A DNA stretch of 42,479 nt from IMG/VR virus record IMGVR_UViG_2939127364_000002. The stretch is one strand, 5' to 3'. Both the position numbers and the translations under genes were made by a program. The stretch is from a virus (lineage: Duplodnaviria > Heunggongvirae > Uroviricota > Caudoviricetes). Positions 8,099-41,471 of the stretch are shown here, piece after piece. The first letter of the stretch is position 1; each line of letters starts with the position of its first letter. The notes below the pieces were generated by a model. That model was not told the DNA's origin and made no database searches. It saw only the letters and a program-made list of their open reading frames with translations.

Positions 8099-8926
8099 AT
8101 GGGGTATGTCTCTATACACCGCCAGTTTATGGACAGCAGGCTCTATAAGGACTCTCAGGCAGTACATCTTTGGCTTCACTTAATCCTCAAGGCTAATCAC
8201 GAATCTACTGTCGTCAATACGGATATCGGTCCGATAACTGTTGATCGCGGTCAGATGATAACTGGACGCCCGTCGCTGGTCAGAGAAACATTCATCCCCG
8301 ACAACAAAGTTCGGAGCTTATTACGGACTTTTGAGTCGAAAGGTATGCTTAATATTTGCTCGATGGGGAAGAAATTTAGCCTGTTTACAATCGTTAAATA
8401 TGACGATTTTCAGGCAAAAAATTGTCCAACGGTTGTCCAACGGTTGTCCAACGCAAACACCAGTAATGGCGCGGCTCTCAGCGGAGATTGTCCAACGGTT
8501 GTCCAACGGTTGTCCATAAACAATAATATAAATAATATCTCTAATACTGACGTATTAGAGAGTGCCACAGCAGACAAAAAGTCTGACAAGAAAAAACCTT
8601 CCGTTAGCTGTCAGGATGTTGTCGATGCTTACCACGAAATCCTTCCTGAAGCGCCAAGAATCCGCGCACTGAATGACAAGCGTAAAAACCAGATCCGAAC
8701 GTTCTGGCGCAAAGCCGGAGTGATAACCCGCCAGCTTGACGGGCATGGGTTCACGATGCAGGACTGGAGAAATTATTTGAGCTACGTTGGCGAAAATTGC
8801 CGATGGATGTTCGAAGAGCGCCCAAACCATCAACGCGGAACCGTCTGGCACAAAAAGGGATTTGATTTCCTGCTTAACGATAATACCTACCTGAAAGTTC
8901 GTGAGGGTGAACACGATGACCGATAA
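8099..8926 (+). CDS. Replication initiator, O-like
   Basis: Start placed at ATG 8099 (MGYVSIHRQF...) with AGGAGG RBS instead of track start 8036; ori-like iterons lie inside the gene; followed by the helicase gene. Confidence 0.7.
   Translation: MGYVSIHRQFMDSRLYKDSQAVHLWLHLILKANHESTVVNTDIGPITVDRGQMITGRPSLVRETFIPDNKVRSLLRTFESKGMLNICSMGKKFSLFTIVKYDDFQAKNCPTVVQRLSNANTSNGAALSGDCPTVVQRLSINNNINNISNTDVLESATADKKSDKKKPSVSCQDVVDAYHEILPEAPRIRALNDKRKNQIRTFWRKAGVITRQLDGHGFTMQDWRNYLSYVGENCRWMFEERPNHQRGTVWHKKGFDFLLNDNTYLKVREGEHDDR
8422..8517. repeat. Replication origin iterons: two clusters of three tandem 11-bp repeats (TTGTCCAACGG)
   Basis: Copies at 8422..8454 and 8488..8517 (last copy partial), then AT-rich stretch 8515..8560; all inside the O-like gene. 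Confidence 0.7.
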
Positions 8927-36555: not shown

Positions 36556-37578
36556 ATGGCAGTAAAAATTTCAGGTGTACTGAAAGACGGCACAGGAAAA
36601 CCGGTACAGAACTGCACAATCCAGCTGAAAGCAAAACGTAACAGCACCACGGTGGTGGTGAACACGCTGGCCTCAGAAAATCCGGATGAAGCCGGGCGTT
36701 ACAGCATGGACGTTGAGTACGGTCAGTACAGCGTTATTCTGTTGGTGGAAGGATTCCCGCCGTCACATGCCGGGACCATCACCGTGTATGAAGATTCCCG
36801 ACCCGGTACGCTGAATGATTTTCTCGGTGCCATGACGGAGGATGATGCCCGTCCGGAGGCTCTGCGGCGTTTTGAGGCGATGGTGGAAGAAGTTGCCCGC
36901 CAGGCATCGGAGGCATCGCGGAATGCCACCGCCGCATGGCAGGCATCTGAACAGGCGCAGACATCAGCAGGTCAGGCATCGGAAAGCGCCACGGCAGCAG
37001 TGAATGCAGCCGGAGCGGCAGAAGCATCAGCCACACAGGCAGCCTCATCCGCAGCATCTGCAACCAATGCGGCAAATAGCGCTTCTGCTGCAAATACTGC
37101 AAAAACCGGCGCAGAAGCTGCAAGAGATGCTGCAAATACTGCAAAAACCGGCGCAGAAGCTGCAAGAGATGCTGCAAATACTGCAAAAACCGGCGCAGAA
37201 GCTGCAAGAGATGCAGCTCTGGATGCCCAAACTGCTGCTGAATTAGCTGAAGCAAATGCAAAAATTTCTGAAACAAATGCAGCTGAGAGTAAGCGATTAG
37301 CAGAAGCAGCGATAGATGTGGCAAACTCATCTGCAGGAATATATCAGGACACCACATCTGGTTTGGCGGGAACGGCAACCGGAGGTTATTTTTCGGTGCC
37401 GTCACCCCTGGATGACGAGGTGCTGATTTTGTATCGGAATGACGCCGGAATTGCTACTGAAGTTAAGAGATACCCGAGCGCGGCGGGGGTTGAAAACACG
37501 CGCGTATCGATGATAGGGGTGGCGGCCAGTCTGGTGCTGACACAATCAATTATTGCGGCGCATCACGCGTTTCTATGA
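36556..37578 (+). CDS. stf: Side tail fibre protein, proximal part (lambda Stf N-terminal domain)
   Basis: MAVKISGVLKDGTGKPVQNCTIQLKAKRNSTTVVVNT... matches the lambda Stf N-terminus; contains three perfect 42-bp tandem repeats. Confidence 0.8.
   Translation: MAVKISGVLKDGTGKPVQNCTIQLKAKRNSTTVVVNTLASENPDEAGRYSMDVEYGQYSVILLVEGFPPSHAGTITVYEDSRPGTLNDFLGAMTEDDARPEALRRFEAMVEEVARQASEASRNATAAWQASEQAQTSAGQASESATAAVNAAGAAEASATQAASSAASATNAANSASAANTAKTGAEAARDAANTAKTGAEAARDAANTAKTGAEAARDAALDAQTAAELAEANAKISETNAAESKRLAEAAIDVANSSAGIYQDTTSGLAGTATGGYFSVPSPLDDEVLILYRNDAGIATEVKRYPSAAGVENTRVSMIGVAASLVLTQSIIAAHHAFL
37087..37212 (+). repeat. Three perfect tandem 42-bp repeats inside stf (14-aa unit AANTAKTGAEAARD)
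   Basis: Identical units starting at 37087, 37129 and 37171. Confidence 0.9.
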
Positions 37579-37594
37579 CAATGAGGAAACTGAA

Positions 37595-38914
37595 ATGAGC
37601 GTAGAAACAGAACTAGCAAAACTGACGACAGCAACAGCCGCGCTACTGGAGTCGGTGAATGTAAACAAAGCGGCGCTGGATGCAGCAGTCATAGCGGCAA
37701 ATGCAGCAGAAGCAAAGGCCACCGAACAGGCTGGCGTGTCAACAACCAAAGCGGCCGAGGCAGTAGCCGCCGCGCAAGATGCGTTAAATCGGGCTCAAGC
37801 TGCGTTGGATTCAGCGGCCACGGCAGCAGCGCAAGCTGCCGCAGCCACAGCGGTTGCGACAGCGAATTTAGAAACCGCACTACCAGCCAGCGCATACATT
37901 AAAGATGCTAACCGTTACGCCGTCGAGCGCGCGTCAGGCGGGCGTCAAACCGTGCTGTATGATGATCTAGGCAATCCAAGCGTGATGAATATCATCCCAA
38001 TTTTTCGTTACGAGGATCTCGGCTACAGCGAGGACATGGGAACCGGGGTAGTCAGCTGCTTTGATGTTGGCACTGGCACCAACAAAAGCGAGATTTTTAT
38101 CGGTGCATTTCAGTCATCATTGGTCGGCAGTCGCGCAGTGTCATTGCCGCGTACAGGCCCGGCGACATTCGTAAACTTCGATACAGCAAAAGGCTACTGC
38201 GCAAACAAAGGAGCTGGCTGGCATCTGATGACAATGCACGAGTGGGCAGCAATTTCGCTGTGGTGCATGGCTAATGGCTTCGAGCCGCGCGGAAACACGA
38301 ACTTCGGACGCGCACATGATCGCTACGTAGAGCGAGGTCGCCGCATGGATGGCGGACTGCCGGGCGATACCGCCGGAACACCGCGCGTGCATGCGGGATC
38401 AGGGCCGGATGCGTGGCGGCACAATAATTCGCCGTGGGGAATTAGTGATTTAGTCGGCAACGTATGGGAATGGCTAGACGGATTCAAGTTGCAAGATGGA
38501 CAAATCATTGCCAGTACATTTAACACGCAAGCTGAAGCAAGTTGGGCTGCACAAGCCGCCTATTTCGATGCAACGCAGACCACCGGCGGTGCGCCGCGCC
38601 TGTCTGATGCAGTAGTCAATCGCCTGGGAGCAATCGGCGATAACACGACCGACGGATACTCAGCAAGCGGAAATTTCGACGTTATGGAAAAAACAGGCAC
38701 ATATGTCAGCAATCAGCTGCTGAAGCGTCTATTGGTCGAGCCATCGACAGTGCTGCCGAAAGGTCGCGTATATATGCGAAATTTTGGCGAGCGGCTCCCG
38801 TATCGTGGCGGCGCTTGGGACTACGGCATCAATGCCGGCCTCGCCGCGCTCGCTTGCATCGCTTCGCGCGACTTTGCGCGCACCAGCATCGGGTTCCGCC
38901 TCGCTTTTGCGTGA
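37595..38914 (+). CDS. Distal tail fibre protein with C-terminal FGE-sulfatase (SUMF1)-like domain
   Basis: Ala-rich N-terminal region; C-terminal ...GWHLMTMHEWAAI...GNVWEWLDGF...RGGAWDYG...SIGFRLAFA matches formylglycine-generating-enzyme family motifs; GAGGA RBS before ATG 37595. Confidence 0.65.
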   Translation: MSVETELAKLTTATAALLESVNVNKAALDAAVIAANAAEAKATEQAGVSTTKAAEAVAAAQDALNRAQAALDSAATAAAQAAAATAVATANLETALPASAYIKDANRYAVERASGGRQTVLYDDLGNPSVMNIIPIFRYEDLGYSEDMGTGVVSCFDVGTGTNKSEIFIGAFQSSLVGSRAVSLPRTGPATFVNFDTAKGYCANKGAGWHLMTMHEWAAISLWCMANGFEPRGNTNFGRAHDRYVERGRRMDGGLPGDTAGTPRVHAGSGPDAWRHNNSPWGISDLVGNVWEWLDGFKLQDGQIIASTFNTQAEASWAAQAAYFDATQTTGGAPRLSDAVVNRLGAIGDNTTDGYSASGNFDVMEKTGTYVSNQLLKRLLVEPSTVLPKGRVYMRNFGERLPYRGGAWDYGINAGLAALACIASRDFARTSIGFRLAFA

Positions 38915-38958: not shown

Positions 38959-39081
38959 CCTGGAGGCTGTCGCATGAATGAGTTAATCATCGAGCAAAAA
39001 GTAAGGGAGATGATCTTGTATGGCTACATCGCACTGCGGCAACTGCCAAGAGCTAACACATACAGACTGAGAAATCATTAT
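38959..39081 (+). CDS. Possible small protein (40 aa)
   Basis: MNELIIEQKVREMILYGYIALRQLPRANTYRLRNHYSQNP with GGAGG 8 nt upstream; not in the track. Confidence 0.25.
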
Positions 39082-39111: not shown

Positions 39112-39492
39112 ATGACAAAAACATATCTGCACGCCGGCATCGCGCACGCTGATACATCAGAAGAATACATGATGGAGCTAGGCATCGACGCCGACACCAG
39201 AGCAGCAATCATGAGCCAAATTGACTTTGAAACAGCGCAGGATGCAGTAGCAGCAAAAAAACTGCGTGATGCCGCCGTAGCTGCCATCAAAGTAACTGTA
39301 AGTGGCAAAGTTTTCGATGGAGACGAGGTCGCGCAGGGGCGCATGGCGAGAGCGGTGGCAGCAGCTGAAAGCGCGACCATCACCACATATCAATGGAAAC
39401 TTGCAGACAACAGCGTCGCTACAGTGTCGCTGGATGAGCTAAAGCAGGCGCTGGCGTTGGCATTCCAAGCTCAAAGCGAATTATGGGTATAG
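39112..39492 (+). CDS. Hypothetical protein downstream of the tail fibres (possible fibre accessory protein)
   Basis: 126-aa track ORF with AAAGGAG RBS; family not confidently recognised. Confidence 0.45.
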   Translation: MTKTYLHAGIAHADTSEEYMMELGIDADTRAAIMSQIDFETAQDAVAAKKLRDAAVAAIKVTVSGKVFDGDEVAQGRMARAVAAAESATITTYQWKLADNSVATVSLDELKQALALAFQAQSELWV

Positions 39493-40077
39493 GCGATCTG
39501 CAACTGATTGCACCCATTGGGGAGATAATAAATGATATACAGAACCATGTAAACGGCGCTCGCAACATTTTAGCGGCGGGGCACGCCGTACTTGCCTGTG
39601 GAGGGACGGTGCAGTCAGACCGCCCGTTGAAGCAGGAACCAGACGCTGAGCAATCAGCCGTCACCCACTAATGGGAATCCCCCTCCTGAGTCACGAAGTG
39701 CGAAGGTGGGGGAGGATGTCAATCTGGTGCTGCTGTATCAACTCGCATCAGCAGTATCCGGTATTTCTTTCACTCGCTTAGAGCGGTGGTTTCTTCCTCC
39801 GTCGCAATACCTGCATCAACAGCATCCTGACGCCGGTCAATCTCTGAGTCTGCCTGCGCTCGTAAATGAACGTTTACGAAAATGAATATCCTCCACAGCG
39901 TAATCAAGACGTAACTGTGGCGGGCATTGAAAATCTTTACTCACTCACTAACCAGAATTCAGCCTCTTCAAACATTTCCTGAACAGTACGGCTTATCTGT
40001 TCTTTCTCATGCTTGCTGGCGTCAGTGTTGATCGCCGGCAGTGTCATCATCGGTTTGCAAGGCTTTGCGCTGCTTTT

Positions 40078-41235
40078 CTATGACACCTTCTCATCAAGCC
40101 AATCCGCCCACCACTGCATCATTTCTCTGCGCTTATCGAGATACTGAGCATGGTTGTAAATTCCACGTACAGATCCGCCGTTGGCATGTGCCAGTTGCAC
40201 TTCAATGGCGTCGGCAGGCCATTCGTGCTCGTTCATAATCGTGCTGAATTCATGCCTGAATCCGTGACCGCTTTCCAGACCTTCATAGCCGATTTGTTTG
40301 ATCACAAGCAATACCGCGTTCTCGCAGATTGGCTTCTTCTTATCGTTGCGCCCGGCAAAAACAAACTCTGAGACTGGTTTGGTGATTGAGCTTAGCGTAG
40401 TGAGAAGTTCAACCACCTGGTCTGACATCGGGACCACATGAATTTTGCGTCCCTTCATCACACTGGCGTCGATGGTGATAATCCTGTTTTCAAAATCGAC
40501 GTTCTTCCATAGCATGGAACGAAGCTCTTTCGTTCTTAGGGCTGTATAACGTAAAACTTTTGTCGCAATGAGCGATACGATACTTCCTGAAAATGTTGCC
40601 AGTGCTTTGTTGAATGCAGGGATCTGGTCTGCTGGAAGGAACGGGAAGTTCTTCTTGCGGTATCCCTTCATGGCGTCAGCAAGGTCAGGTGCCGGGTTAT
40701 ATTTAGCCCTACCAGTGACAATAGCGTAACGGAAAACCTCGCCGCATCTTCTGCGGGCTTTGTTGGCTCGCTCCATTGCACCGCGATCTTCAAATCTGCG
40801 GATTACTTCCAGCAGTTGCATCGGCTCAATATCCTGAATTTCAAGGCCGCCGATGATGGGTAAAATGTCGTCATCAAACATTTTTGCAAGTTCATTTGCA
40901 TAGCCTACTGACCAGACTTGCTTCTTGTGCTCGTACCATTCCTTGTAAATGGCGCTAAAGGAATTGTTGTTAGACGAAGTCTTTTTCGCTTTTACCGGAT
41001 CGATACCAACCGAGATGTCTTTCCTCGCGGTCCATGCTTTATCCCTTGCCTCCTGCAAAGTCATAAGCGGATATTTTCCGACGGTCAGGATTTTCTCCTT
41101 ACCGTCAATCTTGTAGCGAAGCTGCCATACCTTTTTCCCGGATACAGGAACATAAAGGTACAGGCCATTACCATCGAGAAGGCGGTATGGTTTTTCTTTC
41201 GGCTTTGCTGCTTCAATCTGCTTAACGGTGAGCAT
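40078..41235 (-). CDS. intS: Tyrosine integrase, IntS-like
   Basis: MLTVKQIEAAKPKEKPYRLLDGNGLYLYV... recognised as the CPS-53/KplE1 integrase; start placed at ATG 41235 rather than track start 41271; adjacent to argW. Confidence 0.9.
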   Translation of the reverse strand: MLTVKQIEAAKPKEKPYRLLDGNGLYLYVPVSGKKVWQLRYKIDGKEKILTVGKYPLMTLQEARDKAWTARKDISVGIDPVKAKKTSSNNNSFSAIYKEWYEHKKQVWSVGYANELAKMFDDDILPIIGGLEIQDIEPMQLLEVIRRFEDRGAMERANKARRRCGEVFRYAIVTGRAKYNPAPDLADAMKGYRKKNFPFLPADQIPAFNKALATFSGSIVSLIATKVLRYTALRTKELRSMLWKNVDFENRIITIDASVMKGRKIHVVPMSDQVVELLTTLSSITKPVSEFVFAGRNDKKKPICENAVLLVIKQIGYEGLESGHGFRHEFSTIMNEHEWPADAIEVQLAHANGGSVRGIYNHAQYLDKRREMMQWWADWLDEKVS

Positions 41236-41281
41236 GGGTAAAAATCCGGTGGGTAAAATTATTTTATCCACTTTTTACCCG
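41236..41281. promoter_or_regulatory. Cluster of GGGTAAAA / TTTTACCC 8-mers upstream of intS (candidate recombination-protein binding sites)
   Basis: GGGTAAAA at 41236..41243 and 41251..41258, inverted TTTTACCC at 41273..41280. Confidence 0.35.
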
Positions 41282-41396
41282 TCATGGAGTGCGGCTGTCA
41301 ACGATCTGACGCGAACCATGACGAACCGTGAATATACGGAAGGCTTGATATTCAGGGGATTTTGCGGACTGGTACGGATGGGAGCGAACTGATAAA

Positions 41397-41471
41397 TGGT
41401 GTCCCCTGCAGGAATCGAACCTGCAATTAGCCCTTAGGAGGGGCTCGTTATATCCATTTAACTAAGAGGAC
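41397..41471 (-). tRNA. argW: tRNA-Arg (anticodon CCU)
   Basis: 75-nt cloverleaf GTCCTCTTAGTTAAATGGATATAACGAGCCCCTCCTAAGGGCTAATTGCAGGTTCGATTCCTGCAGGGGACACCA with anticodon CCT and encoded CCA. Confidence 0.9.
41411..41426. repeat. att core copy within the argW T-arm
   Basis: Exact 16-bp match to 221..236. Confidence 0.6.

Follow-up and report, generated by a model that had tools for sequence, protein, structure and literature searches.

A probably young in-frame expansion of a 42-bp unit in the shaft of a lambdoid Escherichia coli prophage side-tail fibre

Perfect tandem repeats inside a tail-fibre gene raise the question of how they arose, whether their number changes and what such a change would do to the fibre. 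We addressed this question in the 42,479-nucleotide viral record IMGVR_UViG_2939127364_000002 (hereafter the window, meaning the whole stretch of DNA analysed), in which an earlier note, made from the letters alone, had pointed to three perfect 42-bp repeats in a gene that it called stf. Our analysis indicates that this array is probably a young in-frame tandem expansion, from one to three copies, of a 42-bp unit within a coiled-coil fibre shaft encoded by a lambdoid E. coli prophage. The gene and the array are as follows:

36556..37578, + strand: stf-like gene for a proximal side-tail-fibre protein of 340 amino acids (aa) (P0038 = AYN89405.1), from the open reading frame (ORF) list, PF08400, the PHROG tail fibre families and an exact-sequence look-up
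37087..37212, + strand (periodicity 37086-37214): array of three 42-bp units, from Tandem Repeats Finder (TRF) and exact matching

TRF, exact matching and the reading frame all bore out the repeat at these positions. The three perfect units follow one another in codon phase on the + strand (37087-37128, 37129-37170 and 37171-37212), and each consists of 14 codons encoding AANTAKTGAEAARD, so that the array gives AANTAKTGAEAARD three times in the frame of the 340-aa ORF that starts at ATG-36556. TRF reported 37086..37214 with period 42, 3.1 copies, 100% matches, no indels and a score of 258, and it also detected a 21-bp period underlying the array. By exact matching, the units start at 37086, 37128 and 37170, and period-42 identity extends over 129 nt, the length of three units and a further 3-nt TGC. 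When up to 3 mismatches were tolerated, the window gave three unit matches versus 0.00 expected from 100 dinucleotide-preserving shuffles. An assembly error of the window record was ruled out, since the array is also present in the complete genome EC6 and in the drafts L022-L025. The observation of the array is confirmed.

Copy number was then compared among alleles from complete genomes, short-read drafts and metagenome contigs, retrieved by word-index searches that were not exhaustive. Queried with just the repeat region, the protein search gave a single partial protein, and both part-query searches missed the window's own protein. The allele is rare, the 3′ half of the gene being present in 2 of 5,426 complete E. 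coli genomes. Searches of genome_contigs and viral_contigs with the C-terminal half detected no relatives, the match in the phage collection was limited to a Gifsy-like 112 nt, and a look-up of protein P0033 gave no contig. The alleles recovered fell into one-, two- and three-copy states. A single unit between identical flanks was found in ET5, in a 13-member cluster of 386-aa proteins, in variants of 344 and 407 aa and in a Klebsiella allele of 392 aa. The unit of ET5 carries two synonymous differences, and that of the Klebsiella allele is nucleotide-identical to the window unit. Three copies are present in the window, in EC6, in the proteins P0052 and P0053 and in L022-L025, which encode exactly the same 340-aa protein in four different downstream contexts. 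Two perfect or near-perfect copies (326 aa) are carried by P0054, P0055 and P0056, on contigs L027-L030, and each of the three haplotype backgrounds on which these two-copy proteins occur is also seen with three copies. Outside the array, ten full-length alleles varied at 24 sites, of which 23 fall within the first 306 nt, and EC6 with three copies was identical to L027/L028 with two copies at 24 of these 24 sites. A different length variant was seen in Klebsiella pneumoniae, where contig L021 opens (1-200) inside a duplication of ~168 bp (56 aa) that includes the unit and holds TGAEAARDAALDAQTAAELAEANAK twice.

These comparisons support two proposals of the earlier note, whose reading of the array proved largely correct. 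Its recent duplication fits relatives that hold a single unit between the same flanks (ET5, the 386-aa cluster and the Klebsiella 392-aa allele), and its view of the array as a substrate for length variation fits the occurrence of one, two and three copies, including two states on the one haplotype of EC6 and L027/L028, where the two-copy state comes from short-read assembly. Copy number is not fixed, with divergent units, in all related prophages, the situation that the note had named as arguing against ongoing variation. Taken alone, identical units count for little as a sign of recency, since the alleles hardly vary anywhere over the 3′ 700 nt of the gene.

Direct evidence of turnover came from a difference within the array. 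In L025 (972-1097), a synonymous GCA>GCT change at unit position 27 is present in units 1 and 2, with GCA in unit 3 ([T][T][A]). The two copies of L029 (876-959) carry GCT and then GCA ([T][A]), and this change is the only polymorphism within the array. A substitution common to two adjacent units implies that a unit was duplicated after the mutation, or converted, and hence that the array has turned over, in line with the concerted evolution that the earlier note had offered beside duplication. Protein P0059, found in two independent metagenome assemblies, contains two diverged copies whose units differ at 5 of 42 nt. P0059 and the L025 pattern are independent of the counting of perfect copies.

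A plausible route to the array is suggested by the trinucleotide TGC, which stands on both sides of the unit in single-copy alleles. The first duplication would probably have been a rare illegitimate event, by misalignment at this 3-nt sequence. Thereafter, units could readily be gained or lost through replication slippage or unequal recombination across the 42 to 84 bp of perfect homology. Slippage or unequal exchange of this kind could account both for the two- and three-copy alleles on identical haplotypes and for the variant shared by units 1 and 2. In-frame variable-number tandem repeats are a general class in bacterial and phage surface proteins, for which slippage or unequal recombination is presumed. 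The array resembles this class in its perfect units, in a unit length that is a multiple of three and in a copy number that differs among near-identical alleles; it differs in having no on/off switch, as no frameshift is possible, and its three states are seen between alleles only. Nor does it have the form of a phase-variable contingency locus, given that 42 bp are 14 codons and every copy number stays in frame.

The effect of adding or removing a unit depends on the part of the fibre in which the array lies:

36856..37338, + strand: alanine-rich alpha-helical shaft, residues 101-261, a predicted coiled coil of the PCoil type that holds the array (residues 178-219), from AlphaFold2 (AF2) and periodicity
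37241..37281, + strand: older imperfect 21-bp (one-heptad) tandem repeat AEANAKI/SETNAAE, from TRF (period 21, 85% matches)

The AF2 monomer model of the 340-aa protein, of moderate confidence (mean predicted local distance difference test score, pLDDT, 63.6), placed beta strands over residues 3-77, helices at 101-179 and 183-261, a beta domain at 278-307 and a terminal helix. Helix pLDDT was ~57-77 in blocks over residues 111-240 and lower at both helix ends, and the array, as residues 178-219, falls within predicted helix. The periodicity of small and hydrophobic residues was strongest at 3.5 residues. When the protein was written in rows of seven, alanine occupied columns 2 and 5 throughout the array and past it, and one 14-residue unit made up exactly two heptads with alanine at the core positions. 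Since the unit is two heptads, gain or loss of a copy leaves the coiled-coil register intact. With the rise per residue that is standard for coiled coils, each 14-residue unit would correspond to ~2 nm of shaft. A change in copy number would then alter shaft length only, with the terminal domains intact.

Prophage fibres with such shafts have been described. Our shaft matches the characteristics of PCoil, namely an Ala/Ser-rich low-complexity stretch after PfN, predicted helical structure and heptad periodicity, and residues 102-393 of lambda gpStf form the proximal coiled coil in Ur-lambda (PMC12617516). By homology to lambda Stf and EPclA, the shaft would form a trimeric coiled coil. In E. 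coli prophage fibres, alleles differ in PCoil length by multiples of seven residues (Ghosh et al. 2012, PMC3368898); heptad-step variation of shaft length was thus already reported in 2012, and the array is an ordinary new example of it. Between close alleles of our gene we found shaft indels of 14, 14, 21 and 42 aa and one of 8 aa. A strict rule that all shaft indels are heptad multiples was dropped owing to the last of these. Register-preserving length steps appear to predominate in the shaft, though not absolutely.

Several observations weigh against a young array of changing length in a coiled-coil shaft. One of the indels that separate close alleles measures 8 aa and so departs from multiples of seven, and the AF2 model on which the shaft assignment draws is that of a monomer only. 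Copy numbers above three were absent from the alleles surveyed, and both complete genomes have three copies. Perfect two-copy alleles were seen only in short-read or metagenome assemblies, and assemblies break at the array, with a run of N in L019 (5950-6000) and contig ends in L020 and L021 (position 1); the partial proteins P0001, P0032 and P0036 begin inside the array and P0034 begins just after it. Because short-read assemblies break there, these perfect two-copy alleles could be artefacts, and collapse from three copies to two is possible.

The same observations would be expected if a single past triplication were now stably inherited and the perfect two-copy alleles were short-read collapses, an alternative that we take seriously and yet consider rather unlikely. 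It agrees with the three copies of both complete genomes and with at least six independent assemblies that give this number, and the [T][A] of L029, a short-read Logan contig, could be a collapsed [T][T][A]. However, the three-copy L022/L025 and the two-copy L027/L028 have neighbouring accessions, which suggests one batch or pipeline, and that pipeline resolved three copies twice. The [T][T][A] of L025 also needs duplication or conversion of a unit after the point mutation, and P0059 represents a robust two-copy state with diverged units in another lineage. We therefore retain a young expansion with turnover as the preferred account. With alleles recoverable for the ancestral single copy, for an intermediate of two copies and for three copies, the locus offers a clean, datable case of a register-preserving change in fibre-shaft length. 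The array breaks short-read assemblies or may collapse in them, and copy numbers taken from draft genomes are accordingly unreliable.

As regards the consequences of copy number, a neutral effect or a modest tuning of fibre reach would be most likely. We also considered that copy number might be under positive selection, shaft length being fitted to the depth of O-antigen or capsule or to the geometry of a tip diversified by a diversity-generating retroelement (DGR). In its favour are the DGR-diversified tip of relatives, which puts adsorption under selection, the repeated occurrence of heptad-multiple indels in the shaft, and the diverged tandem 14-aa units of an EAARD type that stand at the same position in fibres of phages with high G+C content (GC). 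We nevertheless judge selection on copy number to be unlikely: among the few alleles available, copy number showed no association with variable region (VR) sequence or prophage background, neutral slippage predicts the same pattern equally well, and lambda can form plaques without its side fibres (PMC12617516). What is at stake biologically is modest, as side fibres of such type speed adsorption and are not essential in lambda.

The high-GC fibres bear on the age of the unit itself. With a degenerate peptide-level pattern, we found the exact 14-residue peptide as a single copy in 16 phage or prophage contigs of high GC (0.63-0.66) from IMG/VR and JGI metagenomes, where it sits just before the distal domain and is encoded by quite different codons. 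The same pattern gave 0 matches in species-representative genomes and only high-GC fibres in IMG/VR and the JGI metagenomes, and tblastn of a high-GC fibre against isolated phages gave no match. When this family was instead collected through its distal domain, 41 loci were obtained (L037-L077), of which 8 carried the exact peptide and 4 a one-residue variant. The remaining loci have other 14-residue units of the form '...AK..(A/S)EAARDA(S/A)...', often in three or four diverged tandem copies; in L052 and L064, for example, the units lie within the 50 codons before position 1501, and one to four copies occur overall. A strong conservation of the exact peptide in the high-GC family, which we had considered, was weakened by the count of 8 in 41. 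Sequence comparison thus places the window unit in an old two-heptad repeat type of fibre shafts, in which only the copies are new. A further speculation, and a quite doubtful one, is that the EAARD-type unit is a conserved, reusable module of shaft length that was re-expanded here, so that slippage would add a shaft-length axis of adsorption beside the diversification of the tip by the DGR.

The presence of the exact peptide, in single copy and before the distal domain, in distant high-GC fibres of very different codon usage would also be expected if the 14 residues were a specific functional site, such as a hinge or a binding site for a chaperone or partner, whose copies alter valency and not just length. 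We regard such a site as very unlikely. Of the 41 loci retrieved without bias through the distal domain, only 8 contain the peptide in its exact form, and 90% conservation is reached by the ARD core alone. The unit also shares the alanine a/d pattern of the surrounding shaft.

A last alternative would place the function of the array in DNA or RNA, as a regulatory site or an antisense gene, and not in a protein-coding repeat. It draws on ORFs that overlap the array and on weak terminator-like matches on the minus strand in each unit. Three ORFs cross the array: one antisense of 208 aa (36779-37405), one antisense of 61 aa (37045-37230) and one of 80 aa in another sense frame (37004-37246). The earlier note had called the long antisense ORFs spurious products of the repeat. 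We agree that such ORFs cross the array and are lengthened by it. Their source, however, is the GCN-rich coding of alanine: the 208-aa ORF spans 627 nt compared with 126 nt of array, and the one-copy ET5 gene has an antisense ORF of 117 aa and a sense ORF of 158 aa in another frame. A family search of the 208-aa antisense and 80-aa sense ORFs gave no match above noise, and this result, together with the similar ORFs in ET5, ruled out an antisense gene. The terminator-like hairpins of each unit have 5-bp stems and were rejected as ordinary consensus noise. Moreover, the sole polymorphism within the array is synonymous in the stf frame, and high-GC relatives conserve the peptide and not the DNA. 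An element acting in DNA or RNA is hence extremely improbable, and we continue to treat the array as a repeat in the protein.

The rest of the gene shows what kind of fibre the array is part of:

36556..36837, + strand: collar/attachment domain, residues 1-94, ~91% identical to lambda gpStf 1-94, from PDB 9E7M/9MGH (E 1.7e-52) and AF2 beta strands
37055..37061, + strand: mosaic crossover within CATCTGC, a microhomology of 7 nt that lies 25 nt before the array, from sequence comparison
37306..37575, + strand: conserved C-terminal module, residues 251-340 (small beta domain and terminal helix), from AF2 and relatives

Residues 1-134 matched Pfam PF08400 (prophage tail fibre N-terminal) with E 1.9e-72, and the 340-aa product also matched tail-fibre PHROGs. 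The gene order is J (32343-35825), lom (35892-36491; Ail_Lom, E 1.5e-119) and then the stf-like gene from 36556. The name stf given in the earlier note is therefore justified by the N-terminus and by the position of the gene, with the reservation that the gene is a short, split-fibre variant. It is a three-part mosaic, lambda-like from 36556 to ~36861, Gifsy-2-like over 36862-37061 and of the type found in DGR-associated fibres from 37055 to the stop. The second part (200 nt) has 1 mismatch to stf of Salmonella phage Gifsy-2, and the third shows identity or near-identity to fibre genes from further prophages of E. coli and Klebsiella. GC drops from 0.61 to 0.47 across the CATCTGC crossover. 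Close to the mosaic junction, at ~residues 171-178, the alanine heptad register slips by one column.

The 340-aa protein is not a single-chain fibre of the lambda Stf type with its own distal receptor-binding region: it stops at residue 340 after the small module, and the next gene starts 17 nt downstream. The features that follow it are:

37595..38914, + strand: gene for a 439-aa distal fibre protein with an FGE-type C-type-lectin (CLec) fold, of the DGR variable-protein type, from PF03781 and PDB 5VF4 TaqVP (E 2e-59)
38790-38909, + strand: VR of 120 bp, from comparison of VR and template repeat (TR)
38974..39053, + strand: 5′ stub of avd, from blastn against ET5, L021 and L023 and the ET5 annotation
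39112..39492, + strand: gene for a 126-aa DUF4376 protein that travels with the fibre module, from a family match and the contexts

Automatic annotation mis-flags the 340-aa gene as a truncated pseudogene, the Prokaryotic Genome Annotation Pipeline (PGAP) calling its twin in EC6 (L001 6001-6777) a pseudogene 'missing C-terminus'. Truncation was ruled out by conservation of the protein, which is identical in at least five assemblies, and by recurrence of the C-terminal module. This module is an internal domain of many large fibre proteins (657 cluster representatives, E<=1e-3) and also forms the C-terminus of small proteins with other N-termini. It lies beside the same 439-aa-type gene and DUF4376 in a contig of a SU10-like podovirus and occupies the gpH position in a P2-like contig. 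Given this recurrence across settings, the 340-aa gene looks like the intact proximal half of a two-protein fibre, whose C-terminal module may dock the product of the next gene.

In relatives, avd and a reverse transcriptase gene come next after the 439-aa-type gene (ET5, here L002; Klebsiella L021 and L026; L023, L024 and L030), and a TR of 120 bp lies between these two genes in the three loci checked (ET5, L021 and L023). VRs differ between nearly all loci, chiefly at TR adenines, and 15 of the 20 mismatches between the window VR and the TR of relatives fall at such adenines. In the window, the TR, most of the reverse transcriptase gene and all of avd beyond its stub were lost in a deletion of 1,483 bp with its junction at 39052/39053, so that of a complete DGR (VR/TR, reverse transcriptase and Avd) the VR is kept and, with these parts gone, is frozen. 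This split, DGR-linked fibre with its decayed DGR is more noteworthy than the array.

With EPclA-D of enterohaemorrhagic E. coli (EHEC) prophages (PMC3368898) the 340-aa protein shares the PfN (PF08400) N-terminus followed by an alanine-rich low-complexity region of loose heptad periodicity, the PCoil, and the two-heptad array sits in the equivalent region. In contrast to EPclA-D, it has no collagen or PfC domain; another small module forms its C-terminus, the distal part is a separate DGR-type protein, and the change in length can be traced to a perfect 42-bp array with one-, two- and three-copy alleles. Lambda gpStf (9E7M/9MGH, PMC12617516) is similar in its collar (~91% identity), in its place after J and lom and in its proximal coiled coil. 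Lambda gpStf, however, is a single chain of 774 aa with a gp37-like tip that binds OmpC and needs Tfa, whereas the protein described here has 340 aa and hands over to a separate protein of FGE/CLec fold. The likeness to Mtd of Bordetella phage BPP-1 and to TaqVP (5VF4) lies in the neighbouring gene and not in the repeat: that gene has the FGE-type CLec fold and a 120-bp VR with mostly adenine mismatches, and its relatives are accompanied by avd and reverse transcriptase.

The host prophage is an apparently complete lambdoid one, with a repressor and, upstream of the stf-like gene, a DnaB-like helicase, terminase and tape measure, and it adjoins intS, argW and yfdC of E. coli. Its fibre end (window 39112-41471) abuts intS in opposite orientation, beside tRNA-Arg(CCT) at 41397-41471 and yfdC. 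The same fibre module is found elsewhere in other strains, at yodB/zinT, at dacD/sbmC and beside dinI with a different integrase, and in E. coli GCA_034535795.1 it is present at two different chromosomal sites. Another pair of perfect arrays, with an 11-bp unit (TTGTCCAACGG, 2.9 and 2.6 copies), lies at window 8422-8453 and 8488-8516 and is followed by an AT-rich stretch. These arrays are within a 296-aa ORF that has no Pfam match, just upstream of the DnaB-like helicase gene, a layout that resembles lambdoid origin iterons inside the initiator gene.

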